Below are positions 5,387 to 24,954 of a DNA stretch of 32,000 bases, in pieces (positions within the stretch are counted from its first letter, which is position 1; each line of letters opens with the position of its first letter). The position numbers and the translations under genes are program-made. The notes under the pieces were generated by a model. The model was not told where the DNA came from and did not search any database. It saw only the letters and a list, made by a program, of their open reading frames with translations. The DNA is taken from the NCBI GenBank assembly GCA_008080745.1, contig SHMX01000003.1, forward strand, positions 60,001 through 92,000, read 5' to 3'. This DNA is from Candidatus Thorarchaeota archaeon. Lineage in GTDB: Archaea; Asgardarchaeota; Thorarchaeia; Thorarchaeales; Thorarchaeaceae.

Positions 5387-5824
5387 TTGCATGCGCTGCC
5401 ACCAAGGAGTCCAAATCAAATGGGCACAGTATGGTTTATAGCCAAAGAATACCTGAAACGGCTTGAGGTCGATTTCGAGGAACATGGGAGAAAAACATTT
5501 AGTCTCTATCCTTTTGGGCAGACTAAAACTGAACAAATTGAGATTTTCCCAGGCACACACTGGATTACATTAACTACAAGATTACAGGACATCTCGGATT
5601 TGCCCGAAGATACCAAACAAGATTTTTGTCAGATATTATTGAAAGCAAATGCCAAACTCGCTGAGGTTAGTTTTGGGATTGATAAGAAGGATTGTGTCAT
5701 AATTCGAAATGCAATTCCTGTTGTGGGAATCAGCTATGACTCGTTTAATGCTACATATGAAGCACATAAGAATGGTGTTAAATTCTATCAAAAAAGTCTT
5801 GCACAAAAAGTTGAATCGAAATAA
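5387..5824 (+). CDS. YbjN-like / type III chaperone-fold protein (tentative)
   Basis: 145 aa. The pattern WITLTTRL...FCQILLKANAKLAEVSFGID fits the YbjN LL..N......F..D signature. Confidence 0.55.
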   Translation: MHALPPRSPNQMGTVWFIAKEYLKRLEVDFEEHGRKTFSLYPFGQTKTEQIEIFPGTHWITLTTRLQDISDLPEDTKQDFCQILLKANAKLAEVSFGIDKKDCVIIRNAIPVVGISYDSFNATYEAHKNGVKFYQKSLAQKVESK

Positions 5825-5851
5825 AAGGAGAGAAGAGGGGACAAGCCCCTC
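5821..5851 (-). terminator. Hairpin plus pyrimidine tract after the 1968-aa gene
   Basis: Minus strand GAGGGG-CTTGT-CCCCTC then TTCTCTCCTTTTAT, 7 nt after the TAG. Confidence 0.5.
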
Positions 5852-5858
5852 ATTTATG

Positions 5859-8800
5859 CTATTTCTTCCGTCGAGATGCTAGTATGACTACTAGTATTAC
5901 GACAACACCAGCACCACCAAGCAGAATCAAAAGATCCATTGGTAGTTCGCCACCAGGATTCTCAGGTCCTGTTGGAGAGGTAGTGGTCACGGTTACAACA
6001 CCTTGACCTACAATGTAGGAACCAACCTGTGATGGGTAGTTCTGACCATCAGCTACAACTAGTACTTTGAAGAATACTTGAGTGCCATCTGGGAATGCCT
6101 CAATGATACCGGTCCAGTGAGAACCGTATTCATTGTTCATATCAACCATAGTCCATGTTGATTCATCCGTATTGATTCCGTACAGAAGGTAGACGTCGTA
6201 ATTCTCTACATCAGTAAATATGTCAACACCAATCTCCACATTATCAGTAGAGGTCGGTATGCTTGGACTGACAGAGAAGGTTGAAAACTCAACACCGGTA
6301 ATGGGGCCTCCTTGAGAACCACCATTTGCTGATGTATAACCGACAAAGACTGGGTCCTGATAGACACTATAGCCATCCCACTCAGGGAAGCCAATTGTCA
6401 CATAGAACATGTTACTGCTGAATGACCAACCAGTAGCGCTCTGTCCATTCTGAGATTGGAATGCAGTCTGGAAAGTATTCATGGGAGTAGTATAACTCAA
6501 CACGTCATAGCGTTGAGATGTGTTCTTACCCCAATCATATGCCACACCGCCCATTATCATCTCAGCGAACTTAGCGCCTGATGTAGCAAAGTCAAACGTA
6601 GCAGAAGACACGGTCATATCAGACGTTGCTTCTGTCCCATTAGCATTGACTGTATAATAGTCGCTCATGGTTACGTCGGCAAAGTAGTTCAAAGCTAAGG
6701 ATCGATTAACTAAGTTATCACGTCCACCACTACGATCGACATCCCAGTTTCCAACATAGTTGTCTACTTTGATATCCGCATAGTTATTGATTGCACCTGC
6801 GGTCTCATTAATGTGACCCTGGAAATGTACGAGGAAGGAGAGTTCATCTATTGAAATCTTGGTAGGACGTTCATCAAAGGTTCTCAAGTCAGAACCTTCT
6901 TGAATACCATCGTACCAACCCCAATATCCTCTTAGAGTATATGGAAATACGGTTCCATTGACCTCATTGAATGTTACACCCCATGTGACCTCATCGGTCA
7001 GATTAAGACGCATATAATCACTCTCGTTGGTATTACCATATGCAACACCAGGAGTAACAAATTCGACACTATTAACAGAGTCAGGAATCAAATAGTGAGA
7101 TAGCTCACCACTACCTGGATCTGTAAGGTCGACATCCATTTGGTCGTTCTTGTTCTCATCTTCCCAAATCATTAGACCACTGTATTCATAATGCATGTTG
7201 ATACCAAGCCAGTGCTCAATATCATCTTCTATGTATGAAGTACCATAATCCTGTCCGACACCGAAACTTAGCCAGGTCCATGATTGCTCATTAGAGGTAA
7301 TCCAATCCCAACCATTGGCCTCTGCCTCAGCTACGATATCAGTCCATGTGACATTCTTAGCCATCCATGACAAATCCCAGTAACCTGGTTGTGGATCTCC
7401 TTCTTCAGTTAGGAGAGTAGCAGTCACATCAGCCATCTCGCTCTCGCTAAGTGGACTAAATGTGTTCGCATCATACCAATAGAAGGTCTGATTCCATTCG
7501 TAAGTCCAGGTAAATGTGTCAAGTCCCATCCATGAATGGATGTCCATATTATCACCATATAATGTGGCATTGGGATCCCAATCAATGTGTACCGACATAC
7601 GGTCCCATGTATGGGTCCAACTGTCAGTGGAAGAGTATTCCTCCTTCACAAAGTATTGGTCAGTAGTAGTATCGAGATTACCATCGAGGTCCAGAGCACC
7701 ATTATCAGGGTTGGTTGTCCAACTCTGAACACCCCACATACCCCAACGAGGTACACCGATTACAAGTTCATTGAAGTTCTTGTTTACAGTACTATCGATT
7801 GGCTCAAGTCCGTATACCATTGGGTGACCCCAACGCTGTCGAACTCTCTTGATACTCTCCAAGCTAGCAGCAGCGGTAACCTCTGTTCCATCGTAGGTGA
7901 AGTTAAACATTGGACGAGTACCTCGTTCCATGTTCAAGAAAATGTCACCAGACGCTGTGGCATTAACAAGCCTGAAGGACCAGAAACTGTATCCGTACCA
8001 TAAATGCTCGTAGGTCTCGCCATTGAAGTCAAAGACCCAATCAGCGAGGGTATCGTTGTAGTAGGTGTATGCCATATAGGTAGCAACTCTTGGAAGTTGT
8101 ATCCAATCGGTCAGATTGACCCAAGTACCATTCAAAGCCTTGTAGTAGTAATAGGTGACATTGTCAATGAAGTTTGACTCGGGATATGTCATCTGTGAAT
8201 AGAAGGTTGTTCCATTCAGGTCATATTCATTAATTCTGAAGACATATGTTTCTTGAACTAGCCAGTCAGTATTGTTACTTACTAGATCGAGATAACGGTA
8301 GGTGTCATTGTATTCCTTTGGCCAATTTGAATCGGGCCATATTGGTTCATATTGAATAGACTCCATGACCGTAAATCCAAGATTGTCATTGAAAGTTCCA
8401 ATGTCTCCCGAACGACCCACCATATATGGATTCCATATATCTGTACCATTTGCACTAGTGTAGTGCATGTTTGGATATTCATCCAGATTGTAGGCGGTAC
8501 CACCGACATCTATCCATGCATCGAATTCCGTCATGTTATACACTGGATAGTATGTACCAAGATACTTAGCGAATTTTAGAGTAGGTACCTTTCCACCGTC
8601 AGTATCAACATATTCCATATGACTATGCCATTCTGCGTTAGCACCATCATAAGGCATCTCGTACTGGACAGCATCAATCTCTGTAAACCAAGATCTATGT
8701 ACCCGCCAGCTCTCAAGAACAAATGTTCTCTCAAAACCATCATAATCCATACTATAGTAGTGTAAAGGATAACTGATGTATGTTAGAACTCCATCAATGG

Positions 8801-11765
8801 TAGTTTGGTATCTGTACTGATAATAAATACTATCATAGACCTCCTCGACCTCATAGAGATTTCCATCGAGATCGGTCATGTAATACTTGCTATCTCTACT
8901 TGACCACCACCATTGTGATATTTCCATGGTGCTACTAACACCATAACGAATGAACTTGTCTTGATTATATCGCTCTACTTCTACCTTGTCATAAAATTCA
9001 AAGCTTTGTAGGTTCCATTTCTGGTACTCTGAACCACCTTGGTGAACACCTCCATCGATATCAACCCAATAGAAGTATTCTGTGCTTCCGTGAATCCAAT
9101 ACCGATGCTCTTCCATTGTAGTAAGGAAAGTATCACCAGTGTTAGTAGTCACATTATAGATGTATGCTACATCATCATAGGTCACATAGATCTTTTCAGA
9201 GTCATTTTGACGTTCGTAATAGTAGTAATCCCTATCATTTTGTGGATCCCAGTGATCATAGAAGAAGAACTGTTCCCAAGTGTTTCCACTGCTAGGATCG
9301 AAGTTCTCATAGACTTTGATGGGGATTATTTCACCATTGATTTCAACATAAGGAATCTCTTTACCAGTGAGGTAATCTGAGCCCTCATTTGCATTGAGTG
9401 TATTATTGTAGTAAGCTAGTTGTTGTGTAATTGGTGCTACGTATATCTGATCACCATTGTATTCGAAGCTATTTACCCATTCTCGGTCCCAAGATAGTAT
9501 TTCATGATAACCATAGGGTTGGGAATAGTCTTCATGCCAGGTGTTGTTCATAAAGGCAAAGTTCCACCAGTAACTGGTATCAGCGACAGTTTCACTCATA
9601 TTAACCAAGAAAGAAACAACGAGATCGCCACCATCTGTCCAATTATTGAAACTAGATATCTGACAGAAATCAGCGGTTATAGCAGCCTCGGGGCTTCTTG
9701 GAGGTATGTATTCCTCCTGCCATTTTCCTTCAGCTTGATTATAGTACCACCATTGCCAGTGCCAGCCTTCAACCTCAGTCCACTCCCACTCCCAGTACTC
9801 GCCATAAGCCCAGTCCCAGGTATTGGTAGCTTCATTATATTCATAGTGCCAGCCAGTAGCATTCGTGTAAACAAAATCCCAGTAGGTACCATAAGTGTAG
9901 TTGTATTTCTCTGTTCGATTGAACGCTGTAAAGGTAGGATTGCCGAGCATATCAAGAGTTACTTGATATGTGAGTTGAGAATACCAAGATTCTTCCTCAC
10001 TCCAGTAACCATCATATGCATTTAGAGAGAATCTAGCTCCGTCGATAGAAGCAGCTACTTGTGCACCACCCTGAAGTCTACCGCGAACCATGAAGTTCTC
10101 ACCTTTATCAGTATGGAACATCCAGCTATTGGGTTCAGAACCATCTTCAAAGAGAATCTTTGCAATAGTAACAGGGGTTTCGATTGCGATTTCTTTGGCA
10201 TCTTCATATTCATTCCAAGTCATTGGAGAACCATCTCCACCTGCATTGGGCCAGTATTGATAACCATCTGCACCCATGACGAAATCTTCAAAGTAGAATG
10301 TATGTTGATTAGAAACAGGCATATCTTCTGTGAAATGTCCCACAAAATCAACAACAAGTTCTCCGCGTGCAGTGTAAGCGATACACTCTGATTCATTTAG
10401 CTCAAAGAGGTTTGGAAAATCAGTAGGTATTGATTTTAAAACGAGTTCTTCTTCGTCCCAGATACCCTCAACATAGTGGTCATAAGGATAGACCCATGCT
10501 CTATATCCAACCATTGTATCGAAATTCTCAGTTATGGCATTGTAAATTAGATAGAGGTTCATCTTTTTGGATTCATTCCGGAGAACAACATCATAAGAAC
10601 CAGTCTGAGTGGTTTCATTCCAAATCCATTCAAGGGCATAATATTGTACATCCTCGAATGTGGCGATATCAACATACTCTCGTCGTTGGTATTCACCGAA
10701 TACCTCTCGTTGATATGATACTTCAACAGTTTCATCCCAGACATAGGTCTCCAGAGTGTTGTTGTATATCCAACCACCATTGGTAGTGACGGTTTCCCAG
10801 TGTAATCCAGATTCATTTACCCAAGTTTCAATTGAGTAGGGCATATCAAATACCAGGGAAGCATATTCAATTTCACCAGTGATATTGAAACGCATAGTAA
10901 AGTCAGTTTCACGACTAACAGAGTATAAGGTATCTCCATCTTGGTCAAGCTTCTGAAGTGTGAAGGAACCACCATAAGAGAAGCTCCATGCATCCTCCCA
11001 AGCTATACCAACCGCAATTCCTTGAAACTCGTAACCACTTCCGTAGTTATAGGATCCAATTGAGTTCCAGTTCTTATCCAATACCGTCATGTCTAGTTGG
11101 AAAAGTCCAATTGGAGCACGATTATTGAACTGTACTCTGAATTCTACATAGTATGTATTCGCATCAGAATGATTTGAACAGCTATCGATATCCAAATCCA
11201 TGAAAGGATCAGTTGGATAGGGGTCAGCTAAGCTCATATTTCTAAGATTGGTATAGATCCACCAGGGTTCCCATGTGTACTCCATATCCTCATAAGATAT
11301 GGTAAAGTCAGCACTGAAATTCTCCCAGTCATCTGTCATATACCAACCATGTAGTTCTACACGGCCAAGTTCTCCATTATCGAATACATTCTTTGGAATT
11401 ATCGTTTTGATAGTAATCCATTCATTGATATCTACATACTCATCTTGTTGCATCAGATATCCTGTGGAATTGTATATCTCGAATCGTGGAGATGGACCGA
11501 ATAACCAATTTTTGTTATCCCAAGACCATTCATCGCTTGTCGTGTTTGCATCCTGATGCCATGAAACATATGTACCATTCTCTTCATGGGGCATATATGG
11601 GTCATAAGCAGTGTGGGGTTGAATTGAAGTTACATCTGTTGTATAATCATAAGTAGTAACAGGTACCGCAGAATTCGACCCTACTGCAATCATGGAAACA
11701 AGGAACAACGCAACAGATACAAGTGATAGAATTGTCTTTTGTCTATATCGTCGCATCTTCATCAT
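5859..11765 (-). CDS. Giant secreted, C-terminally membrane-anchored surface glycoprotein (paralog B, 1968 aa)
   Basis: Basic N-terminus plus hydrophobic signal peptide; Trp/Tyr/Asp-rich beta-type sequence; about 40 N-x-S/T sequons by hand count; one Ig-like unit, Thr-rich linker, TM helix and RRKK tail. GGAG RBS upstream. Confidence 0.92.
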   Translation of the reverse strand: MMKMRRYRQKTILSLVSVALFLVSMIAVGSNSAVPVTTYDYTTDVTSIQPHTAYDPYMPHEENGTYVSWHQDANTTSDEWSWDNKNWLFGPSPRFEIYNSTGYLMQQDEYVDINEWITIKTIIPKNVFDNGELGRVELHGWYMTDDWENFSADFTISYEDMEYTWEPWWIYTNLRNMSLADPYPTDPFMDLDIDSCSNHSDANTYYVEFRVQFNNRAPIGLFQLDMTVLDKNWNSIGSYNYGSGYEFQGIAVGIAWEDAWSFSYGGSFTLQKLDQDGDTLYSVSRETDFTMRFNITGEIEYASLVFDMPYSIETWVNESGLHWETVTTNGGWIYNNTLETYVWDETVEVSYQREVFGEYQRREYVDIATFEDVQYYALEWIWNETTQTGSYDVVLRNESKKMNLYLIYNAITENFDTMVGYRAWVYPYDHYVEGIWDEEELVLKSIPTDFPNLFELNESECIAYTARGELVVDFVGHFTEDMPVSNQHTFYFEDFVMGADGYQYWPNAGGDGSPMTWNEYEDAKEIAIETPVTIAKILFEDGSEPNSWMFHTDKGENFMVRGRLQGGAQVAASIDGARFSLNAYDGYWSEEESWYSQLTYQVTLDMLGNPTFTAFNRTEKYNYTYGTYWDFVYTNATGWHYEYNEATNTWDWAYGEYWEWEWTEVEGWHWQWWYYNQAEGKWQEEYIPPRSPEAAITADFCQISSFNNWTDGGDLVVSFLVNMSETVADTSYWWNFAFMNNTWHEDYSQPYGYHEILSWDREWVNSFEYNGDQIYVAPITQQLAYYNNTLNANEGSDYLTGKEIPYVEINGEIIPIKVYENFDPSSGNTWEQFFFYDHWDPQNDRDYYYYERQNDSEKIYVTYDDVAYIYNVTTNTGDTFLTTMEEHRYWIHGSTEYFYWVDIDGGVHQGGSEYQKWNLQSFEFYDKVEVERYNQDKFIRYGVSSTMEISQWWWSSRDSKYYMTDLDGNLYEVEEVYDSIYYQYRYQTTIDGVLTYISYPLHYYSMDYDGFERTFVLESWRVHRSWFTEIDAVQYEMPYDGANAEWHSHMEYVDTDGGKVPTLKFAKYLGTYYPVYNMTEFDAWIDVGGTAYNLDEYPNMHYTSANGTDIWNPYMVGRSGDIGTFNDNLGFTVMESIQYEPIWPDSNWPKEYNDTYRYLDLVSNNTDWLVQETYVFRINEYDLNGTTFYSQMTYPESNFIDNVTYYYYKALNGTWVNLTDWIQLPRVATYMAYTYYNDTLADWVFDFNGETYEHLWYGYSFWSFRLVNATASGDIFLNMERGTRPMFNFTYDGTEVTAAASLESIKRVRQRWGHPMVYGLEPIDSTVNKNFNELVIGVPRWGMWGVQSWTTNPDNGALDLDGNLDTTTDQYFVKEEYSSTDSWTHTWDRMSVHIDWDPNATLYGDNMDIHSWMGLDTFTWTYEWNQTFYWYDANTFSPLSESEMADVTATLLTEEGDPQPGYWDLSWMAKNVTWTDIVAEAEANGWDWITSNEQSWTWLSFGVGQDYGTSYIEDDIEHWLGINMHYEYSGLMIWEDENKNDQMDVDLTDPGSGELSHYLIPDSVNSVEFVTPGVAYGNTNESDYMRLNLTDEVTWGVTFNEVNGTVFPYTLRGYWGWYDGIQEGSDLRTFDERPTKISIDELSFLVHFQGHINETAGAINNYADIKVDNYVGNWDVDRSGGRDNLVNRSLALNYFADVTMSDYYTVNANGTEATSDMTVSSATFDFATSGAKFAEMIMGGVAYDWGKNTSQRYDVLSYTTPMNTFQTAFQSQNGQSATGWSFSSNMFYVTIGFPEWDGYSVYQDPVFVGYTSANGGSQGGPITGVEFSTFSVSPSIPTSTDNVEIGVDIFTDVENYDVYLLYGINTDESTWTMVDMNNEYGSHWTGIIEAFPDGTQVFFKVLVVADGQNYPSQVGSYIVGQGVVTVTTTSPTGPENPGGELPMDLLILLGGAGVVVILVVILASRRKK

Positions 11766-11898
11766 TTCTCCTAGTGCGCCTACCTATCATCCTCACTCCT
11801 GAGTTATCTGTGAGTAATCATCCTTGGAGTAAGGAATCCTCAAGGCAAGTGGCGCGCCTTACAGAGTCTAAGCATACTCCGAAATATCAAAATATAAA
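11766..11898 (-). promoter_or_regulatory. Putative promoter and structured 5' leader of paralog B
   Basis: TTTATA at 11898-11893. The roughly 100-nt leader folds by hand into three stems ending 3 nt before the AGGAGA RBS. Confidence 0.4.
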
Positions 11899-11960
11899 CT
11901 CATACACGATATACCCAATCTCAAAATAGTCTAGTAGTGTTCTATTTTTCGAGAATCAAG

Positions 11961-11997
11961 AAAAAAGAGAGAAAGAAGCAGACTTGCTGTCTGCTTC
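11961..11997 (-). terminator. Intrinsic-terminator-like hairpin after the 2265-aa gene
   Basis: Perfect 9-bp stem GAAGCAGAC-AGCAA-GTCTGCTTC then TTTCTCTCTTTTTT, 8 nt after the TAG. Confidence 0.7.
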
Positions 11998-12005
11998 CGT
12001 ATAAT

Positions 12006-15000
12006 CTATCCGCGTCGCTTGATCAGAACTACAATCAGGAGTATTACAACCACTCCAGCAACTCCAGCAGCAACCATCATGAGTGTTCCCACATCAATGG
12101 GTGTGCTGGGACCAGGTCCGGTCGTTGTTGTGGTAGTATCAGTTGGTTCTTCCTGAACAGTGTAGCTATGAGTGTTACAGACGTTCTCATTGCCTAGGGT
12201 GTCATATGCAACAATGCGATATGTCACAGTAGTGCCCACAGCCTGAGCGGGAATGTCACCAGAGTAGACATCTCCACTTCCAGTCATAGTGACATTGATC
12301 CAATCACCACTTCCAATACGATACTGTAGAATGACATCATCAACACCTGTACTGTCCAATATAGTAGCTGAAACAGTTACCACATCGTCAGGTCGTGGAG
12401 TTGAAGGTTCAATGCTGACATCTAATACGGATGGCCCACTGACATCAGGACCAGAGGCGTAGAAGTGGAAGGTATCGGAATCAGACTCTACTCCATTTCC
12501 AGCACCGTCAATCGCTAGGACGTGGAAGGAAACATAGGAGTCTTCTGGTTGATTAGGAATCGTTCCTTCGTAGGTATCTCCGCTAGTTACAGTCATGGTG
12601 ACATTATGTTCAACAGATTGACTATCCGAATAGGTGAGTATGACCTCTGAGAGACCAGAACCACCAGTATCGGTGACATCTGCGCTGACGATAGCAATCT
12701 CCTTACCTTCAGAATCTGTGCCATTTCTAACACTCTGATTCGTGATTTGGGGATCGATATTATCAGGGAAGGTATAGCTCTGCTGACTTGATACACCCTC
12801 GTTGTCTGCTCCATCAATAGCAACAACTACGTAATTGTAGTCATATTGACCAGCTTGAGACCGAGAGATATCTGCCTCCCATCTGTTACTCGCTGTGTTG
12901 AATGTAGCACTGACATTAGCGTTTGTATCAGTATTCATGACAAGAACATCTGAAACTCCAGAACCAACATCTGAAACCTCGATATCGAGATGCAGATTGT
13001 TAACAGTACCACTTTCAGTGATACTATCCACTGTCGGACTCGTTGCATCGGATGTACCCGAGGATGAGTATCCTACAAAGACGGGATCAACTGTCACCTT
13101 GTATCCATCCCACCACTTGAAGTTAATCAAGGTGTAGAATTGGTTTGAAGACACACTGAAAGTAGTAGCAGTTCCACCAACATCGGACATGTATGTAGCC
13201 TCAAAGGCACTCAGGGGTACCGTCTGAGAATCGACAGTTGCATTGAATGATGCGTTCTTCGCCCATGTATAGGGTGAACCTCCAAGATTCATTGCCGCGA
13301 TTGGTACGCTACCAAACAACTTGGCAGTGAAGTTGGAAGAAGCACTGGTTCCAGTGTTCTCTAACTGTGAATCAAAGTCATCGTGGTATGTTGCATTGTA
13401 AGGTGTATCACCCAATACGATTGACACATCACTGTAAAATGCCAAACCAAGACTGTATCCATCTAGAACGCTTCGCCCACCAGGAGCATCAACATCCCAG
13501 TTACCAACAGTCATGTCGTATTTTATCTCAGCATTGTTAGTAGATTGACCGGTTATTTCACCGCTGAAGTTTACGGTAATGCCTATCTGATCAACCGAGG
13601 CCCCACTTGGACGACTATCAAACGAATTCAAGTCAGTTCCATAGTATTGGCCTTGATACCAGTCCCAATAGGAGTATTCACCAAATGGGAACACAATCCC
13701 TGAAACATTGTTGAAGGTAACACCAAACGTGATGGTCTCATCAACCGCTCTGTAAGCTTCCCCAGTGTCGCTTGAGTTACCCCAAGCCTCACCTGGTCGC
13801 ACGAAGCTGACCGATTCAACATCGACAGGCATCCAATAGTGAGTGATTTCAGAGTCATCCATACTCGCTGTGTTTAGCTCCATAATAGTGCTGTCATCAG
13901 TATCGTTCCAAGCAAACATTCCTGCGTACTCGTACCATATGCTGACATCAGCATATACCGTATCAGAACCGTTCACATATTCAGTCTGGTAATCTTCCGA
14001 TATCTCCCACCAAAGCCAGCTCCACTCCCGACTATCTTCGACAGCCCAAGCCCAGCCCTCCTCAATTGCCTGTTGTTTCAGGTCGGCAGAGGTGAAGTTC
14101 TCAGCCATCCAAGCAACACCCCAATAGCCAGCATTGGGATGTCCCTCAGAATTGAAGACGGTTGTGTTGATGAGATCAAAACGTGAGGAGTTAACAACCT
14201 CGCCAGTTTCGACCTCGTACCAGGTGAAGTTATCCCACCAGTATCCAGTCCAATTGACCGTGTACATTCCCGTATATGAGGACATATAGACCTCGTCCCC
14301 AATCAATGTAGAGTTGGGATCCCAGGTAATATCCACCTTAAGGTACTCCTGTGTGATATTATAGGTCTCAGTGCTATTCCAGGTATTTCTTACAAAGAAC
14401 TGGTCATCAGTGGTGTCTAAATTACCATCTAGGTCAATAGCTCCATTATTTGGATTGGTAGTCCAAGTATCTACACCCCACATGCCAAACTCCGGACTTC
14501 CGGTCACAAAGGACCATTGTTCGCGAACTATGGATATTGGTAGAGGAACATAGTCGAGCTTCTTAGAATGACCCCAGACTTTGTAAGCCTTATAGATCAT
14601 ATCTCTAGATCCTTTGATGACATATTCCTGAGCATTGTGGCTGAAATTGAAACTGGGTAGGTTGTAGTTTCGACCACCTTCAGAGAGACTTACTATCTCA
14701 AAAGTATCAGTCGAATTAACCAGAGCAACATAGTCTTCAATCTCAAGATTCCAGTAGTCAGAATTTGACGTCCAATTTTGGATATCAATATTCCAATAAT
14801 CAACTGTGTAGTTGGTATAGTTATACCAATAACTATTGAACAGAAACTGACCGATATTCGTGGCATTATCGTAGTCGTCTGGCTCCATCACTTCGATTGT
14901 GAATTTTTGCCAGTCATACCATTTGTGCATAGTTCCATTCAGATCATATACATACCAGAACTCAGGTTCGTAGTAGTACCTGTCCGCTTCAATATCATAC

Positions 15001-18000
15001 TTCTCAACAGCTTTGTCAGCAACATATGGATCTCCTGTGTAAATAGAGGTTCCATTCTCAAGGGTGATGTTATAGAAGTAACCACGCTGTAAAGTAGTAT
15101 AATTCAGGTAAGTACCATCTATAGTTTCAACATATTGGTATGCTGGAGCGGCAGTATTATTCCAGTTGTAGATAGCAGCATCATTCTGATTATTCAGGTA
15201 TCCTGAAACCAAATCAAGCCAACCCTGTACCTCGAACTCTCGGGTCTGAGGATTGGTGGTGCCATAAGCTACAGTCCAGTCGTGATGACGAATATCAGGT
15301 ATGAACATACCATCGCGATTGGTAGTCACCCATGGATATTCACTCTCTATTGGATCCCACCGATAATTCTCATTGGTTCCATACCAAGTAAGGTTGTAGT
15401 CAGTCGCTCCAACAGTAGCAATGAAGCCAGAATACTCGTAGCCATATAAAGCGTCAGTATACTTGACTTCTTCCTTGATTGCTTCAACCCATTGCTCTTC
15501 AATGTAGACCCGAGTGTCTGCAGGAGTCTTGTATTTAAGATCCCAGAAGTCCCAAACTTCGGCACCAGGATAGGGTAGCTGTTGGTGATTAGATCCTATT
15601 TCTGTATAAGCATAGAAATCAACAGCATCCTTTGGTAGAGTTATATCATATCCATTCCATGAACCCTGGTACATACGATGCGGCCAAGGACCTCGGAACA
15701 ACCAATTAAGATCTGAGCCATTGTAATAATAATACTCCCAATTATCGGTAAGTGGACAATACATGTCATAAACTTTCAATTCTTCCCAGGTCTGATTCAC
15801 GTAAAGCACATAATGATCAAATTGCCAGAATGGTTCTGTTGCAACGTTTATTGGAATAGTACCATTTGCATATACAACAAGATTGCCTTCCTGTACTGGA
15901 GTAGTATCATTCATGTTCACTATTGTCGCAGTGGCCCAGGTACTCCAATCAGCAAAAATTTTCGTGCCGTTTAGAGCATAGATATACTCTTGCTCACTGA
16001 GTTTCCAATCTGCATAAAACCTCCAATCAGAGGCATTCATAGATGAGAGGAACCAAGTGCCATCAGAGAAGGTGGTATTGAAGATTCTACTCTGATAACC
16101 GGATTCAATGTATATCTTTGTACCGTTCAATAAACGGTAATAGTATATCCAATTACCAGTGTAAGAACCCGTTGACGGGTCATATCCATCATCATCCCAT
16201 TCTTCATAAATGACTGTGTCCCAAGTATAACCGCTCTGATCAGTCTGAGTCAGCGTTCGAACATAGTGTTTTTGCCCATCTATATGAATCCAATGATCCT
16301 TTCGAACCTCATAGAGTTCATCAGTTACATTGTTCCGCATCACAGGTTCTTGATTGGGCGTATCTACAAAGTATCGATCAGTACCGTTCTCATAGCTATA
16401 AACGGAATCTGTGACCCATCCAACAAGAGTATGTTCACCCCACTCCGACTCGTAATCAGTGACCAGACTAAGGTTACCGTAGAAGTAGTCCCATTCCCAT
16501 TCCATATCAGGCATATCAGACTGAACTTCGATATCAAAGATGATACGAAGATCATTTCCAATAGTTGTGTAGGTAAGATTCTCAGCTATTAGAAAGGTTC
16601 CGGGCATCACAGTCGCATTTGACTTACGTGGTACCCACTTGGTTGTCCAATCGTTTGCAGTAAAGTTCCAAATCTTATGTTCCCAATGCCAGCCAGTTAT
16701 TTCAACTAGCTGCCATTCCCAAACGCCAGGTACAATCTCAATTTCTTGCCAATCCCAATAGCTACTATACTCATAGCTTGTACGTTCTGTGAAGTTGTAT
16801 GCTTTAACTTGGAAGTTGCCTTCAGGTGAACCTTTTACATAGATCTCAACCTCAGAGTATTGAGACCAATCAGAGGTTCCATTACTACCCCATTTATGAT
16901 CCCATGCCCGAAGAACGAAGGCTACACCATCAATATCAGAGGCATATTCTGCTCCTCCCTGCAATCGAGATTTGACCTCAAAAGCATCACCATGGTCCAC
17001 CGCAAACATCCAAGAGGGGTCATAAGGTTGACCATCATGTGTCAATCTGACAACAGCAATAGGGCTCTCAACAGATAACTGCCTAAGGGCTTGATATGAA
17101 GACTCATCCGTAGATGAAGCTGTTGGTAAGTAAACAAATGGTGCTAATCTTTTGCCATCGGTACTTAGTACTTTTTCTTCCACCCAGAGTGGATTTGAAT
17201 TATCTCCAGTGGGCAGGATTTCTTCGCTGATATGACCTCGGAATGTAACATAGTCATATCCACCAAGTGTATAGTTTTCGCTTGTTGTTGTGTTTAGTAT
17301 GTAAGGTTTAGGAGCCTCACTGTTTGTTGGCCATGGTTCGTAGATTGTTTCTTGATACCATTGGGGACTGTATCCACTAGGATCATTTGGATCGACAACT
17401 AGAGTTTCATTATCGATTGTGTACGAATACTTGGAACTCCATGTTCCATCACTGAAGTTGAAAATCAAAGCTTGGCGAGCCCAAGCGAAAGATGTCCATT
17501 CATGTTGTATGAACCAATCTGAGCCACTCCACTCATAGTGAACCTGTCGGTATTCCTTACCTGGATCTATCCACTTGGTACGAGTTTCCCAGTGAAACCC
17601 ATTTTTGTATACTGTTGTAGTAACAGAAACGGTATCATTCCAATAATAGGTATCAGTTGTGGAATTGTATTCCCATCCACCAGTAACTTCCTGAGTCTCA
17701 GTATAGGGCCCATAGACCCACTCTTCATCCTCTACAGATTGCGGAAGCTCAATATATACGATAACTGCACCAGGATTATCACTCTTGATTTTGGCAGTCA
17801 TGTTGAAATCTACTCCACGTGTAGCTGAATAGACAGGATTGCCATCATCATCGTAACGATCCCAATAATAGTAACCACCAGCACCTTGCTGAATGACTTC
17901 ATCGAAGGACATACCAACAGCTCTGGCGCTTAGTTCATCGTGCTCACTCTCTGCAAGTGTGCCAAGGTTTTCATCCAAAGCCACTGCTGAAATCTGATAC

Positions 18001-18797
18001 ACTCCTATTGGAGTTGTTGTATTGAATTTCAGTTTGAATGTAGTCCAATAATTTTCAGGTCCTACTTGATAACTAGAATTATCTGCATCCAACTCGACAA
18101 AGGAATCAACTGGTTCACCAAAGGCCATCCAGACAAATTCCTCAAGGCTTCCTGGTTCAGGAGCAAGTTTTGCCTCTGCAAGCTGAGCAATCGGACTTGA
18201 TGTGACTGAATCGGTACCTGTTGGTGGTTTTGGTTCTCCACCACCGCCACCATCATCTCCGCCCGTACCACCTTCCATGGTTGCGTTCTGAGAGGAGTAA
18301 ATCACCCAAGTATCTGTTGGTATCTCATAGATGCCCAAGAACACAATGCCATTTTGGCTAATTGGTCCTTCCTGCATCTGTTCAGATACATTCCAATACA
18401 TTCCCATCAGAGCGATGGAATGAGGAACTTTTCCTTGGAGGGCATTCATTGGTAGTTTAAGTTGGAAGTTAGCCCAACCGTCTACTTCTAACTCATCAGT
18501 AAGAGAGATGAGAGAATTCGAGCTGGCATTTCTAACAGACCAAGTAATCTTTGGCCCGAATTGCCAGTGGCTATGTTGAAATGACTCCTGCCATTCTTCG
18601 CTTATCGTACCCTGATCCCAATTAACATAGGTATAATTGGTTGGTAAAGCAGAAGGACTAGATATTCTAGATTCTGCAAAAGATTCTAAGGAAGTATCAG
18701 CTACACTTGTGTTTGTACCCATAGGCACATACGTGAGTGATACTAAGAATAGTACAATAGCGAACAGTGACAGTATTCTACTGTTCGATGTAATCAT
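12006..18797 (-). CDS. Giant secreted, C-terminally membrane-anchored surface glycoprotein (paralog A, about 2263 aa)
   Basis: Signal peptide; colinear blocks shared with 5859..11765; more than 50 sequons by hand count; three Ig-like repeats, TTTTTT linker, TM helix and KRRG tail. Start set at ATG 18797 after GAGGTG (the ORF track uses GTG 18803). Confidence 0.92.
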   Translation of the reverse strand: MITSNSRILSLFAIVLFLVSLTYVPMGTNTSVADTSLESFAESRISSPSALPTNYTYVNWDQGTISEEWQESFQHSHWQFGPKITWSVRNASSNSLISLTDELEVDGWANFQLKLPMNALQGKVPHSIALMGMYWNVSEQMQEGPISQNGIVFLGIYEIPTDTWVIYSSQNATMEGGTGGDDGGGGGEPKPPTGTDSVTSSPIAQLAEAKLAPEPGSLEEFVWMAFGEPVDSFVELDADNSSYQVGPENYWTTFKLKFNTTTPIGVYQISAVALDENLGTLAESEHDELSARAVGMSFDEVIQQGAGGYYYWDRYDDDGNPVYSATRGVDFNMTAKIKSDNPGAVIVYIELPQSVEDEEWVYGPYTETQEVTGGWEYNSTTDTYYWNDTVSVTTTVYKNGFHWETRTKWIDPGKEYRQVHYEWSGSDWFIQHEWTSFAWARQALIFNFSDGTWSSKYSYTIDNETLVVDPNDPSGYSPQWYQETIYEPWPTNSEAPKPYILNTTTSENYTLGGYDYVTFRGHISEEILPTGDNSNPLWVEEKVLSTDGKRLAPFVYLPTASSTDESSYQALRQLSVESPIAVVRLTHDGQPYDPSWMFAVDHGDAFEVKSRLQGGAEYASDIDGVAFVLRAWDHKWGSNGTSDWSQYSEVEIYVKGSPEGNFQVKAYNFTERTSYEYSSYWDWQEIEIVPGVWEWQLVEITGWHWEHKIWNFTANDWTTKWVPRKSNATVMPGTFLIAENLTYTTIGNDLRIIFDIEVQSDMPDMEWEWDYFYGNLSLVTDYESEWGEHTLVGWVTDSVYSYENGTDRYFVDTPNQEPVMRNNVTDELYEVRKDHWIHIDGQKHYVRTLTQTDQSGYTWDTVIYEEWDDDGYDPSTGSYTGNWIYYYRLLNGTKIYIESGYQSRIFNTTFSDGTWFLSSMNASDWRFYADWKLSEQEYIYALNGTKIFADWSTWATATIVNMNDTTPVQEGNLVVYANGTIPINVATEPFWQFDHYVLYVNQTWEELKVYDMYCPLTDNWEYYYYNGSDLNWLFRGPWPHRMYQGSWNGYDITLPKDAVDFYAYTEIGSNHQQLPYPGAEVWDFWDLKYKTPADTRVYIEEQWVEAIKEEVKYTDALYGYEYSGFIATVGATDYNLTWYGTNENYRWDPIESEYPWVTTNRDGMFIPDIRHHDWTVAYGTTNPQTREFEVQGWLDLVSGYLNNQNDAAIYNWNNTAAPAYQYVETIDGTYLNYTTLQRGYFYNITLENGTSIYTGDPYVADKAVEKYDIEADRYYYEPEFWYVYDLNGTMHKWYDWQKFTIEVMEPDDYDNATNIGQFLFNSYWYNYTNYTVDYWNIDIQNWTSNSDYWNLEIEDYVALVNSTDTFEIVSLSEGGRNYNLPSFNFSHNAQEYVIKGSRDMIYKAYKVWGHSKKLDYVPLPISIVREQWSFVTGSPEFGMWGVDTWTTNPNNGAIDLDGNLDTTDDQFFVRNTWNSTETYNITQEYLKVDITWDPNSTLIGDEVYMSSYTGMYTVNWTGYWWDNFTWYEVETGEVVNSSRFDLINTTVFNSEGHPNAGYWGVAWMAENFTSADLKQQAIEEGWAWAVEDSREWSWLWWEISEDYQTEYVNGSDTVYADVSIWYEYAGMFAWNDTDDSTIMELNTASMDDSEITHYWMPVDVESVSFVRPGEAWGNSSDTGEAYRAVDETITFGVTFNNVSGIVFPFGEYSYWDWYQGQYYGTDLNSFDSRPSGASVDQIGITVNFSGEITGQSTNNAEIKYDMTVGNWDVDAPGGRSVLDGYSLGLAFYSDVSIVLGDTPYNATYHDDFDSQLENTGTSASSNFTAKLFGSVPIAAMNLGGSPYTWAKNASFNATVDSQTVPLSAFEATYMSDVGGTATTFSVSSNQFYTLINFKWWDGYKVTVDPVFVGYSSSGTSDATSPTVDSITESGTVNNLHLDIEVSDVGSGVSDVLVMNTDTNANVSATFNTASNRWEADISRSQAGQYDYNYVVVAIDGADNEGVSSQQSYTFPDNIDPQITNQSVRNGTDSEGKEIAIVSADVTDTGGSGLSEVILTYSDSQSVEHNVTMTVTSGDTYEGTIPNQPEDSYVSFHVLAIDGAGNGVESDSDTFHFYASGPDVSGPSVLDVSIEPSTPRPDDVVTVSATILDSTGVDDVILQYRIGSGDWINVTMTGSGDVYSGDIPAQAVGTTVTYRIVAYDTLGNENVCNTHSYTVQEEPTDTTTTTTGPGPSTPIDVGTLMMVAAGVAGVVVILLIVVLIKRRG
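12148..13049 (-). repeat. Three tandem Ig/FN3-like units (about 100 aa) forming a membrane-proximal stalk
   Basis: Units start DATSPTV (13049), DNIDPQI (12764) and DVSGPSV (12446). They share V.D..GSG(V/L)..V, Y.G.IP (units 2 and 3) and V.A.D..(G/D)N. Confidence 0.75.
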
Positions 18798-18921
18798 AAA
18801 CACCTCATATTTTGAAGTTCGTAATCATCTCAGCGTGCTGGCCATATGTTGCGAAAGATCATATCGCCATAATCCTGATAGATGATATTTACTAATTTCA
18901 ATCTCACAACTCATAATATAA
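18798..18921 (-). promoter_or_regulatory. Putative promoter and structured 5' leader of paralog A
   Basis: TTATAT at 18921-18916; complementary segments 18886-18875 and 18833-18824; GAGGTG RBS before the ATG. Confidence 0.35.
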
Positions 18922-18965
18922 GCCTACTTTGGGTGAAGGTGTGCGATTTTTTGAAGAATAGTCAC

Positions 18966-18999
18966 AAAAAGAAAGAATGGTACCGGATTTCTCCGGTAC
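18966..18999 (-). terminator. Intrinsic-terminator-like hairpin after the SpoIIM-domain gene
   Basis: Perfect 8-bp stem GTACCGGA-GAAA-TCCGGTAC (GNRA loop) then CATTCTTTCTTTTT, 9 nt after the TAA. Confidence 0.7.
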
Positions 19000-19008
19000 A
19001 TCAAACTA

Positions 19009-21669
19009 TTACATGTTCAGAAATAACCAGGCAAGATGTCTAACCAAATGGGATATCTCTGTTTCAACAAGTGCAGCAATTGCGAGGAAGAAAGCACAGA
19101 AGAGATAAGTCCTCCATACCCTACCATCAGTCAGAAGCTTTCTTGTTTCTTCAGGAATCTTCTCAAATTCCTCAGCCATGATACTGGGAGTGAGTTCACG
19201 AGCAATTCTCAATGATGCTGCAGCAACGAAGAGAAATGCTGGAATCTCAATGATAGCATGGGGAAGAATTCCTGCCCAGAATATCAAAGGATCTGGTTGC
19301 ATCATTGCAAGTCCACCAACGGTTAATGCTGTTGAGAGTACTTCAGATATTGCCAAAGCCATTAGACTGAATTTGATGTATAAGAGAAGTGTATCCTGTT
19401 GTTGAACTTCGGGTTTGTTAAAGAACACTGCTTTATACAATAAGGCTATGACCATTGGAAGCACTATCAATGCAATTAGAGTAAATTGGTCGTCATATAC
19501 AAAATACTCTAAGACAAATAGGACTAACAAGGGTGGGAACCACCAACCACCATCGGTTCCACGTATCTTGTTTATCAACCATATCAGGAAATATCCCAAG
19601 AATAAAATTCCCAATAGAATGCCAACTATCATTCCAATAAAAGCCTCGGCTGTCCATGGTGGTGTTAGTGCTACAGTGGAATTCAGGAGTATCAAAGACA
19701 CTATCAAACCTGCAGCCATTGTGAAAATCACAATAAATACAGAGTAGAGTGCATTGGTTTTTTCCTCATGGCCTTGTCTTCTGACGGCAATCAGCCAGAG
19801 AACCAGTGACCAGAAGACAGGTCCGATTAGAAGCATTAGCAATGTTCGTATCAGGTTGTGCTCCAAGATGATAGGGAGTATTGAACCTGTGGCTGCAATA
19901 GTCCATTCTCCAAAGATAAACTCAAGTCCATTCGGGTCGCCTATCTCTGTTAGGACGGTATATACAAGATAGTCCAAAATTCCTGGTGGAATAATATAGG
20001 ATAATAGAGCTATACCGATGGCTGAAATAATTAAACCACCAAAGAACATGTATACAACATCTTTAATGTCGCGCACATGCACATTTACCAAAGGTCCTGA
20101 TTCAATGCCATGTTTTTGACGATATCTATCACTTGAACGGAGATAGTACATGACAAACATGGTTCCAAAGATGTATAATGGAACATTGATCAGAAACTCA
20201 GACATATACCTAAACAATGCATCAGCTTCTGTTGGAAGCGCAATTAATGGTCGAAGGCGAACTATCTCTACTGAAGCATATTCCATTGGTGTAGGCGAAA
20301 TTCCTAAAATGTAGTCCAAGCTTGGAAATACTATCCAAGTTACAACTGCTAATAGAAATCCACCAATAATAGCAAATCCTTCAACACCACCAGAAACACG
20401 TTTTCTACTGAAGTGTCCCACAACCCCCAAGAATAGAATCATCAAGAAGGGTATTGCAAGTATTAGTAATACCCAACGAGTGGCATTTATCAGTGCCATA
20501 TTGCTTGAGGCATTCATTAGTATTGACGCAACAGTAGAATCAACTTGCCCTGGTAAATAGTTGTATGTGAAATTGTTATTGACAGAAAAGTGAAGAGTTG
20601 CTGCCATAATGGATCCTACAAAGGCTGCAATACCGATGGTAGAGATAAGTACAGAAGCGCCATAATTTGCAAGAGCAGCTTTGAAGTCAAACTCTGATGC
20701 TTTAGATCTAAGCTGAGTGAGAGCTTCAAAAGTACGCTTATAGAAAATAACTGCAAAATCTTCAACCAACGGGAATATTATGATAGCAAATAAAACGGGT
20801 GGAAATGCCAAGACAATTCCAACAAAGTATTGGAATAATACTGTGTTCAGACTGGCGGGATCACCAATCAATCCGTAAATGGAAAATCCAATGGTTCCAA
20901 GAGATAAGAGAAGATTCAGCCTGAAGAACCACCCTAGTACACCGCGCATCATTTCTTCGCCAATCTTCTTATTTCCTAAAGTTAGTCCTGCACCTTTTGC
21001 AATCCTATTAGATGCGGGATAACCAAACCGGTATATCCATGTAAGAAATACAATGATACCATATCCATAGAATGACTCATAATACCCCATGTATACACCG
21101 ATAGAGGGTAAGAGAGTAGCAAGTCCGATTATTAGATAATCTTTCCATGCATCACTATAAGCCTTAGAGATTATCTCTGGATTTAGAGGTTCTTTATCAG
21201 GGATATCAAACTGGATATTGTTTAATCGGTCACGGAAACCTGAAAAACCATCGGTCTCGGGCTCATGTCCAATAATCCTTTTAATAAGATTTGAAAAAGT
21301 TCGTTTCATAGGATCTTGTAGAGCCAATTTTATTGCTAATACTAGCATTCCAAACAAAACAGCAAAGAATGCTACCATAACCCACGTTAGAAAGTCTTGC
21401 AGTGCACTAGCAAAATGAAACAGATATTCCAATGCGAAGAGGTTCCAGAAACCACTATCTGAAACGGGGGAAGTGAACCCTCCAACTACTCCAATAGGGT
21501 AGTACCAAATATTCCATATATAGAAGAATATTGCCCGAACATAGAGTACAGCTAGAAAGGCTTCAATGTACCTGTTTCGTTTTGATCTAAATAGAAGTAG
21601 ATAAACTATTGTCGAGATCAAAGCGGGAGCTAATTCAAACAAGACAGTTGCTAAGTTTAGTTCTGCCAT
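19009..21669 (-). CDS. Large polytopic membrane protein (about 20-22 hydrophobic segments) with C-terminal SpoIIM-like domain
   Basis: SpoIIM (PF01944)-type signatures ILEHNLIRTLL, GILPHAIIEIPAFLFVAAASLRIA and FLAIAALVETEIS. ATG 21669 lies 5 nt after GAGGTG. Confidence 0.8.
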   Translation of the reverse strand: MAELNLATVLFELAPALISTIVYLLLFRSKRNRYIEAFLAVLYVRAIFFYIWNIWYYPIGVVGGFTSPVSDSGFWNLFALEYLFHFASALQDFLTWVMVAFFAVLFGMLVLAIKLALQDPMKRTFSNLIKRIIGHEPETDGFSGFRDRLNNIQFDIPDKEPLNPEIISKAYSDAWKDYLIIGLATLLPSIGVYMGYYESFYGYGIIVFLTWIYRFGYPASNRIAKGAGLTLGNKKIGEEMMRGVLGWFFRLNLLLSLGTIGFSIYGLIGDPASLNTVLFQYFVGIVLAFPPVLFAIIIFPLVEDFAVIFYKRTFEALTQLRSKASEFDFKAALANYGASVLISTIGIAAFVGSIMAATLHFSVNNNFTYNYLPGQVDSTVASILMNASSNMALINATRWVLLILAIPFLMILFLGVVGHFSRKRVSGGVEGFAIIGGFLLAVVTWIVFPSLDYILGISPTPMEYASVEIVRLRPLIALPTEADALFRYMSEFLINVPLYIFGTMFVMYYLRSSDRYRQKHGIESGPLVNVHVRDIKDVVYMFFGGLIISAIGIALLSYIIPPGILDYLVYTVLTEIGDPNGLEFIFGEWTIAATGSILPIILEHNLIRTLLMLLIGPVFWSLVLWLIAVRRQGHEEKTNALYSVFIVIFTMAAGLIVSLILLNSTVALTPPWTAEAFIGMIVGILLGILFLGYFLIWLINKIRGTDGGWWFPPLLVLFVLEYFVYDDQFTLIALIVLPMVIALLYKAVFFNKPEVQQQDTLLLYIKFSLMALAISEVLSTALTVGGLAMMQPDPLIFWAGILPHAIIEIPAFLFVAAASLRIARELTPSIMAEEFEKIPEETRKLLTDGRVWRTYLFCAFFLAIAALVETEISHLVRHLAWLFLNM

Positions 21670-21832
21670 AAACACACCTCGGTGTTATCTGAAGAGTACT
21701 TCAGCGTTAGCGGATAGAAAAAGCTTCGTTGGACGAACTACTTTCATCATATTATCGAATCACCGAAAACTTAAAATACTAAACAATAGTTAAATAGACC
21801 AGAGTATTCCTAAAACAGGAGAAATAATACAA

Positions 21833-24465: not shown

Positions 24466-24954
24466 ATGTCAAAGAGTAAGAAACCATATTCAAAGGTCAT
24501 CTTTGCAGGAACATTTGATAGATTGCACGAAGGGCATAAACATCTCCTTCGTGTCAGTCTTAGCCTTGGAGACCATCTAGCTATAGGTATGACGACGGAT
24601 AAGATGCTTGAGCAAAAAGCAGATCGGGAATCAATCCAATCATATGAAATGAGATACAACAAGCTGATGGAATTTCTCAGAGAGGAAAATGTAGTTGATA
24701 GATGTGTTATTTTTCCAATCAGCACAATTGAGGGGGGTGCAGATAAGATGGAGGATCTAGATGCATTGATAATCTCTGATGATAGAAAAGTGTTGGAAAA
24801 CGCTTTGAGAATTAATCATCTGAGAGAGAAGAATGGTCTACAGAGATTTCATATTGTGATTGTACCTCTGGTCAAGACAGAGGATGGAAAACCGCTATCA
24901 TCAACACGAAAGAGACACGGAGAAACGTTCAGAGAAGAAGATGTTATTTACTAG
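24466..24954 (+). CDS. coaD: Phosphopantetheine adenylyltransferase (archaeal/eukaryote type)
   Basis: GTFDRLHEGH (HxGH), IGMTTD, ALIIS and LSSTR motifs; 162 aa. Confidence 0.85.
   Translation: MSKSKKPYSKVIFAGTFDRLHEGHKHLLRVSLSLGDHLAIGMTTDKMLEQKADRESIQSYEMRYNKLMEFLREENVVDRCVIFPISTIEGGADKMEDLDALIISDDRKVLENALRINHLREKNGLQRFHIVIVPLVKTEDGKPLSSTRKRHGETFREEDVIY

Follow-up and report, generated by a model that had tools for sequence, protein, structure and literature searches.

Do three large neighbouring genes in the genome of an Asgard archaeon encode a dedicated cell-envelope system, or do they share a locus for other reasons? The question is raised by a 32,000-nucleotide stretch of Candidatus Thorarchaeota DNA (assembly GCA_008080745.1, contig SHMX01000003.1, positions 60,001 to 92,000), hereafter the window, in which three genes, named here A, B and C, lie side by side on the minus strand and together occupy positions 5859-21675. 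A first-pass annotation of the window had described three adjacent co-oriented genes across 15.8 kb of archaeal DNA, and had proposed that they form one system in which a SpoIIM-domain membrane protein (A) acts as the scaffold for two giant surface proteins (B and C). The gene arrangement is seen directly in the open reading frames (ORFs) and their translations, and the host is identified as an Asgard archaeon by the homologous loci, since the named genomes that contain them are nearly all Candidatus Thorarchaeota / Promethearchaeota metagenome-assembled genomes. The host assembly, 98% complete, has 19 contigs with a total length of 3.16 Mb. DNA of the locus is present in only two sequencing runs, both of them marine-sediment metagenomes of one study and probably its source. 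The reading that we favour, with a probability of roughly 0.6, is that B and C are giant N-glycosylated and C-terminally anchored surface proteins with a role in a coat or in adhesion, and that A is a general SpoIIM-family protein and not a proven partner of the giants.

The two giant proteins are built according to the same plan (Table 1). Hydropathy analysis shows that both start with a basic stretch followed by a hydrophobic, signal-like segment, and both end with a Thr-rich stretch, a transmembrane helix and a tail of Arg and Lys residues. Both are acidic, with about three Asp+Glu residues per Lys+Arg residue, and rich in aromatic residues (Trp 4.5-4.8%, Tyr 7-8%), and Cys is almost absent. 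B contains 64 N-x-S/T sequons against 24 expected from its composition, and C contains 42 against 20. The description of giant proteins with a signal peptide, dense sequons, a transmembrane helix and a basic tail was therefore correct, the sequons exceeding expectation more than twofold. An STT3/AglB oligosaccharyltransferase is encoded in the genome, which makes N-glycosylation plausible.

B and C had also been called paralogues, and the alignments agree: they share 37% identity over B residues 1361-1923 (about 565 amino acids (aa) near the C-terminus; E 1e-108) and 27% identity over B residues 231-942 (about 710 aa near the N-terminus), and the middle aligns poorly. In our reading, B and C are ancient tandem paralogues. 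BLAST did not reveal internal repeats in either protein. Profile comparison by hhalign identified a domain duplication in the N-terminal part of B (aa 233-353 versus aa 498-633, probability 96%). Conservation along the family is highest in the C-terminal stretch, which we refer to as the module, intermediate in aa 250-850, and low in aa 900-1360 and in the stalk that follows the module. B is 79% identical to its orthologue in a genus-mate, a value like that of the neighbouring M28 peptidase gene, which indicates that the genes are under purifying selection. The Ig-like nature of the stalk, another element of the first-pass annotation, is supported through the orthologues of B, in which Pfam matches at threshold level to DUF7743, CBM_56, Big and E-set domains lie between module and anchor; the stalk of B itself has a sub-threshold E-set match only.

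A structure model calculated with AlphaFold2 for the module of B has a predicted local distance difference test score (pLDDT) of 63.6 and contains very long antiparallel strands; residues 1-83 are not modelled. Foldseek comparison of this model with the PDB returned nothing at E <= 0.001. With VIA-align, 75 chains were obtained at Z >= 8, and the top ones are all galactose-mutarotase-like beta-supersandwiches (Z 9.0-11.4, root-mean-square deviation 3.7-4.9 Å, 184-238 aligned residues, covering model residues of about 121-556). They include the luminal domain of GLMP, the P1 domain of YidC, copper amine oxidase and aldose epimerases, as well as the C-terminal domains of ulvan, alginate and heparin lyases and domains of GH38 enzymes and beta-galactosidases. 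Thus, in the model, the fold class of the module is the galactose-mutarotase-like beta-supersandwich, an assignment of fold class and not of function or homology: the module shares its fold with these domains at a sequence identity of 4-10%, but it differs from them in having no profile match to any solved structure and no identified catalytic signature. We also weighed a particular kinship of the module with GLMP but rejected it: many unrelated supersandwich domains score as well as GLMP does, and nothing at the sequence level links GLMP with the module. The neighbours of the module in AlphaFold-DB and the ESM Atlas are uncharacterised archaeal proteins; AlphaFold-DB also contains weak matches to Dictyostelium EGF-like proteins (template-modelling score about 0.2), and an ESM Atlas feature search with residues 1-1265 of C gave no usable match. 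Directly before the sandwich, the alignment of the module contains an invariant acidic loop of the type D-x-D-G-N-x-D. This motif resembles calcium-binding loops, and the loop may bind calcium.

Beta-domains of lyases and glycosidases make up many of the best structural matches of the module, which raises the possibility that B and C are surface-anchored enzymes (polysaccharide lyases or glycosidases) with a catalytic domain in their N-terminal 1,300 residues. However, the supersandwich of lyases and glycosidases is an accessory domain, the N-terminal part of B looks like repeated beta domains, as judged from the duplication described above, and no catalytic-domain match to Pfam, NCBIfam or PDB sequences was found over the whole length of the giants. 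We consider an enzymatic role very improbable.

The module defines a protein family of its own. A profile of B aa 1361-1925 retrieved 157 cluster representatives among 1.84 billion proteins, which fall into giants of 1.9-2.5 thousand aa, proteins of about 1.0-1.25 thousand aa, and weaker matches of 0.4-1.0 thousand aa. The complete members that were checked follow the same plan of signal peptide, sequon-rich body, module, transmembrane helix and basic tail. In the databases they are named "hypothetical protein" or "Ig-like domain" and come from Thorarchaeota, a few being labelled Bathyarchaeota, Odinarchaeota or Lokiarchaeota. Pfam searches gave no match for C, only a sub-threshold one for B, and none for ten distant family members; no NCBIfam family was found for B or C at E <= 0.1, and nothing meaningful was found among PDB sequences, whether the query was the profile of the module, the stalk or the N-terminal 1,330 aa. 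The giants had been said to lack a named family, and we conclude that the B/C family is undescribed and mostly restricted to Thorarchaeia. Orthologues of the B type (about 2.0-2.5 thousand aa) are present in a subset of genera, and those of the C type (about 1.8-2.1 thousand aa) are commoner and occur also in a second family of the order, a distribution that fits an old tandem duplication.

A third class of module-bearing proteins, of about 1,000-1,250 aa, was found in almost all of the Thorarchaeia genomes searched, and several further Asgard families have it as well; its genes lie away from A (for example G001:C46:6406-7878 and G026:C1:527564-528949). In the genome studied here this class was not detected, except for a 33-residue match in a 458-aa ORF (C3:211913-212011).

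About 20 other ORFs of more than 1,500 aa in this genome encode proteins with signal-like N-termini and at least two sequons per 100 aa, examples being C1:39552-54617 (5021 aa) and C3:378406-387528 (3040 aa). Giant surface proteins are thus a general trait of this genome. By length, B takes 11th place and C 15th, and their G+C content is ordinary.

With so many other giant secreted proteins encoded, no single one need be "the" coat, and B and C might primarily be glycan- or substrate-binding adhesins that attach the cell to partners, particles or polysaccharides through their supersandwich and CBM-like domains. The supersandwich fold, typical of carbohydrate-active enzymes and mutarotases, the CBM_56 matches in the stalks of orthologues and the variability of the region between the conserved blocks are all consistent with such a role. 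However, sugar-binding residues were not identified, and the fold is also found in non-binding roles (YidC P1, GLMP). Moreover, the module is the most conserved part of the protein, and at the depth of the genus-mate comparison, in which B is so well conserved, there is no sign of diversifying selection. A primary role as adhesins in place of a coat therefore seems to us unlikely, though worth keeping in view, and B and C are most likely cell-coat or adhesion glycoproteins.

Gene A encodes a very different protein. It is strongly hydrophobic (Leu+Ile+Phe+Val 40%), and a hydropathy scan detects about 18 strongly hydrophobic segments. An AlphaFold2 model based on 20 homologues (pLDDT 80.6, predicted template-modelling score 0.76) consists almost wholly of helices, about 20 of them long, apart from a single beta-hairpin at aa 456-479. 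Together, hydropathy and model indicate about 18-20 membrane helices. The Pfam SpoIIM profile PF01944 matches A at aa 771-875 (window positions 19051-19365) with an E value of 2e-11 and 44.5 bits against a cut-off of 26.9, and the match spans only profile positions 71-162, the second half. The description of A as a protein of some 20 transmembrane helices with a SpoIIM-like end is therefore accurate. SpoIIM models of AlphaFold-DB match A aa 605-887 at a probability of 0.91-1.0, the template-modelling score by hit being only 0.36-0.50 and the root-mean-square deviation high. We also considered that the SpoIIM domain might be split by an insert of about 150 aa; this is unsupported, because the AlphaFold-DB alignments span aa 605-887 with about 30 extra residues in a loose fit.

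Residues 1-600 of A form an N-terminal polytopic domain without a family match, fused to the SpoIIM/COG1300-type domain. The N-terminal 520 aa or so match only uncharacterised archaeal models in AlphaFold-DB; for A as a whole, NCBIfam returned no match, Foldseek against the PDB nothing at E <= 0.001, and VIA-align against solved structures only short helical matches (Z <= 8). Across 20 homologues down to 26% identity, the invariant polar residues of A are R216, R224, K227, E305, H606, N607, R610, E723, D729, H806, E810 and E871, and these lie in or near the helices. This conservation suggests an activity beyond scaffolding, such as a catalytic or transport site. Among the invariant residues are those of a motif resembling E-Y-F-V-Y-D-D-Q-F-T and of the P-H-x3-E-x-P motif in the SpoIIM part of A.

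A is the sole PF01944 match in the whole genome, and an orthologue of equal fused length turned up in every one of the 24 same-family genomes searched, which fits a general housekeeping role. Many Thorarchaeota records name these orthologues "stage II sporulation protein M", and distant fused relatives (808-912 aa, 24-34% identity) are present in two other Asgard families. The SpoIIM family (COG1300, arCOG01994) has been reported from all major archaeal lineages (PMC5898192). The first-pass statement that most archaea lack SpoIIM therefore needs correction: what archaea are without is SpoIID, SpoIIP and peptidoglycan (PMC5898192). In agreement with this, no match to SpoIID or SpoIIP (PF08486, PF07454) was found in the 98%-complete genome, and both controls were positive in B. 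subtilis.

We then asked whether A and the giants are linked in relatives. Searches by tblastn with the other genes of the window showed that the block is collinear across 37 named Thorarchaeota loci, in the order HMG-CoA reductase, GlyRS, USP, RACo-like protein, cytidylyltransferase, M28 peptidase, ferritin, A, the giants and a 145-aa ORF. Because the A-giant adjacency lies inside this collinear block with its eight housekeeping genes, it is expected from descent alone within Thorarchaeota. Thirty loci were informative, having enough sequence downstream of A. At first sight the linkage holds, since relatives have between one and three co-oriented giant genes after the A orthologue. In detail, a B/C-family giant comes directly after A in 20 of the 30 loci, and in one further locus it lies 6 kb off, behind an inverted gene for a 1,856-aa FG-GAP protein. 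One locus has an unrelated 1,941-aa NosD/beta-helix/CARDB/DUF4350 protein in the slot, and in the remaining eight the 145-aa border gene directly follows A and there is no giant. Among these eight, G015 has a giant on a different contig from A, and in G010 (93% complete) only the class of about 1,200 aa was found. Conversely, giants homologous over the N-terminal region and the module are present among unrelated neighbours in four genomes of three other Asgard families, in which an A-like gene was not detected with the A profile. Among closed genomes, G036 encodes an A-like protein and the module was not found in it; G026 encodes a module protein of about 1,030 aa and an A-like gene was not detected. 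The predicted linkage of the SpoIIM gene with the giants is thus absent outside Thorarchaeia and partly absent inside.

The transcription signals point in the same direction. A terminator-like hairpin with a T-rich run lies 8-10 nucleotides past each of the three stop codons, as had been annotated. Over the whole region there are 13 such sites versus 9.0 +/- 3.2 in shuffled sequences, which is no enrichment, and the sites are therefore informative through their position only. When the upstream regions of B and C were aligned, a short common element was found to precede each TATA-like box, and the duplication that gave rise to B and C evidently took in the control region, as far as can be read from these alignments. 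The intergenic regions 18804-19008 and 11766-12005 (minus strand) have the same order of elements: hairpin of the preceding terminator, T-run, short A-rich/ACAC element and TATA-like box, with leaders of about 100 nucleotides for B and C. With a terminator-like element of its own for each gene and promoter-like elements before B and C, the three genes look like three transcription units and not one operon. The frames of A and B open with GTG, and in each the first ATG comes two codons later; these ATG positions agree with the first-pass coordinates and with database records, and the annotated start of A is probably the ATG.

Table 1. Genes and features of the A-B-C locus; positions are those of the window (aa, amino acids; nt, nucleotides).
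Feature	Position	Strand	Remarks
Gene A	19009..21675	-	888 aa from GTG; 886 aa from ATG at 21669
SpoIIM-like domain of A	19015..19863	-	aa ~605-887; Pfam and AlphaFold-DB SpoIIM models
Terminator-like hairpin and T-rich run after A	18980..18999	-	10 nt past stop codon
TATA-like A/T box, inferred promoter of B	18913..18921	-	~100-110 nt before start codon; sequence reading
Gene B	12006..18803	-	2265 aa; 2263 aa from ATG at 18797. In order: signal peptide, beta-rich aromatic N-terminal domains, supersandwich module, Ig-like stalk, Thr-rich linker, transmembrane helix, basic tail
Most conserved module of B	13029..14723	-	aa 1361-1925; acidic loop, then ~430-aa beta-supersandwich
Stalk, linker, helix and tail of B	12009..13028	-	Ig-like/E-set stalk (aa 1926-2215); Thr-rich linker, transmembrane helix, basic tail (aa 2216-2265)
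Terminator-like ten-pair hairpin and T-rich run after B	11974..11998	-	8 nt past stop codon
TATA-like box, inferred promoter of C	~11889-11898	-	~100 nt before start codon; sequence reading
Gene C	5859..11765	-	1968 aa; ORF and translation. Architecture as in B, single stalk domain
Supersandwich module of C	6303..7970	-	aa 1266-1821; 37% identity to module of B
Terminator-like hairpin and T-rich run after C	5833..5851	-	8 nt past stop codon; between convergent genes

These results bear on the proposal that the three genes form a functional trio, in which A would be a scaffold or assembly factor in the membrane, dedicated to inserting, anchoring or organising the giants, much as a polytopic membrane protein can work together with a heavily glycosylated subunit that spans the membrane once. 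The co-orientation of the genes would fit, as would their adjacency in most of the informative loci of Thorarchaeota and in another family of the same order, the presence of other giant surface-protein genes in the slot beside A in some genomes, and the occurrence of COG1300 paralogues near S-layer proteins in some euryarchaea (PMC5898192). One of the tied top matches of the module, GLMP, is itself the glycosylated single-pass partner of the transporter MFSD1, although it shares that rank with many unrelated supersandwich domains. However, the adjacency is embedded in general collinearity, A occurs without giants in eight loci, with the giant of G015 on another contig, giants occur without a detectable A in the three other Asgard families, and the genes look like separate transcription units. 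Furthermore, the aligned transmembrane helices of the giants have no conserved residues beyond hydrophobicity and a Gly-rich patch. A complex prediction for A with the last 106 residues of B, both supplied as alignments, scored 0.00; it was run without controls and is no evidence either way. The three-gene system with a SpoIIM-domain scaffold was therefore not borne out, and we now regard it as unlikely.

The slot beside A is variable. At L058:13152-18974 it contains the non-homologous 1,941-aa NosD/beta-helix/CARDB/DUF4350 protein gene and at L027:12749-18316 the inverted gene for the 1,856-aa protein, which has FG-GAP and Big_1 domains; L035 and L047 encode DUF4350 proteins of about 760 aa a few kb downstream. 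The slot may be a hot spot for surface-protein genes, and the recurrence of such genes of different families could mean either that the site readily accepts insertions or that A is linked with surface proteins in general. In the latter case, A would assist the biogenesis or anchoring of giant single-pass surface glycoproteins at large, and the variable slot would encode its clients: mostly members of the B/C family, but in some genomes giants of the NosD/CARDB/DUF4350 or FG-GAP type. We judge this quite unlikely. If it were true, the ancient archaeal COG1300 family would gain a first function, and a close relative of eukaryotes would be seen to pair a polytopic protein with type-I subunits that are heavily glycosylated.

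Several points weigh against the reading that we prefer, that of B and C as anchored surface proteins and A as a general SpoIIM-family protein. That B and C are glycosylated, exposed at the surface or arranged in a lattice is a prediction. Confidence in the module model is moderate, its first 83 residues are missing, and the N-terminal 1,360 residues of B lie outside it. The invariant polar residues in or near the membrane helices of A suggest an activity. A giant does directly follow A in 20 of the 30 informative Thorarchaeota loci, and also in a second family of the order (G025), and because other large surface-protein genes fill the same slot in some genomes, A could serve surface proteins generally.

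According to the reading that we prefer, a Sec signal peptide would export the B or C chain, AglB/STT3 would N-glycosylate its sequons, and the C-terminal transmembrane helix and basic cytoplasmic tail would hold it in the membrane. The Thr-rich linker and one to three Ig-like domains would form a stalk that raises the supersandwich module, with the possibly calcium-binding acidic loop before it, away from the cell, together with about 1,300 residues of beta-rich, aromatic-rich domains. These raised domains would contribute to a glycoprotein coat. Cultured Asgards have been reported to carry "complex surface proteins" and not an ordered S-layer (PMC9834061; PMC11284389), and the coat might likewise be loose; alternatively, it might be an S-layer-like lattice with a glycan- or partner-binding face. 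A would have a general membrane function of its own and would lie beside the giants mainly through inherited gene order, in a slot that tolerates gain and loss of large surface-protein genes.

Three other genes of the window deserve mention. At positions 1097-2344 (plus strand) a 415-aa protein is encoded that contains leucine-rich repeats and also matches the C-terminal domain of MscS-type channels. The RACo-like ASKHA protein (24951-26213, minus strand) has the middle and C-terminal domains only, and is 51% identical between genus-mates versus 72-91% for its neighbours. The 145-aa ORF (5387-5824, plus strand) matches no Pfam family; in the Thorarchaeota loci it consistently bounds the variable slot on the right.

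For Thorarchaeia, no cell-coat protein has been identified so far, and the B/C family, with its module, stalk and anchor, provides concrete candidates. The linkage test also holds a lesson: adjacency that is kept within one collinear lineage is no evidence for a functional system.

How do these proteins compare with known systems? Within SpoIIM/COG1300/arCOG01994, the C-terminal 280 aa or so of A match the Pfam SpoIIM family and, loosely, AlphaFold-DB SpoIIM models, and the genome is without SpoIID and SpoIIP, like those of other archaea (PMC5898192). In contrast, typical members are stand-alone proteins of about 200-250 aa, whereas A has an extra N-terminal polytopic region of about 600 aa. 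COG1300 genes have been found in the neighbourhood of aliA (PMC12462473), SpoIIM-AliA operons are known (PMC5898192, PMC12462473) and prompt the idea that the N-terminal domain of A might be of the AliA/arCOG02177 type, and in some euryarchaea COG1300 paralogues are present in loci with S-layer proteins (PMC5898192). The role of archaeal SpoIIM/COG1300 proteins in "membrane remodelling" is a prediction (PMC5898192). The Bacillus SpoIID/M/P engulfment complex differs in its partner autolysins, SpoIID and SpoIIP, which were not found in this genome.

Two coat proteins resemble B and C. The haloarchaeal S-layer glycoprotein (csg) is an acidic protein with a signal peptide, N-glycosylation sequons and a Thr-rich linker by a C-terminal hydrophobic anchor. 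B and C share all of these features, but they are three times larger, and no PGF motif is visible in their tails. They have no match to a halobacterial surface glycoprotein or PGF-CTERM model in NCBIfam, assuming that the release contains those models, and exosortase/archaeosortase PF09721 gave no match in the genome, in a search of doubtful sensitivity because its control was positive in only 1 of 14 genomes.

The second, PySLP of Pyrobaculum arsenaticum (Thermoproteota), is a colossal S-layer protein of 292 kDa that forms a membrane-anchored outer coat (bioRxiv 10.64898/2026.08.21.746120). Like B and C, it is a single giant chain that exceeds 2,000 aa and carries a signal peptide and likely N-glycans (bioRxiv 10.64898/2026.08.21.746120), and it has an Ig-like membrane-proximal stalk, a C-terminal transmembrane helix and a highly basic tail; this is a shared plan and not evidence of homology. 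It differs in consisting almost wholly of 19 Ig-like domains, whereas the conserved core of B and C is a beta-supersandwich and their N-terminal 1,300 aa match no assigned domain, and in its hyperthermophilic host, that of B and C being a mesophilic Asgard archaeon. No PySLP chain was among the matches listed in the PDB sequence and fold searches with the giants. Membership of either family is unsupported; judged by analogy of plan, the working principle of B and C is closest to that of the PySLP-type S-layer proteins and the haloarchaeal S-layer glycoprotein.

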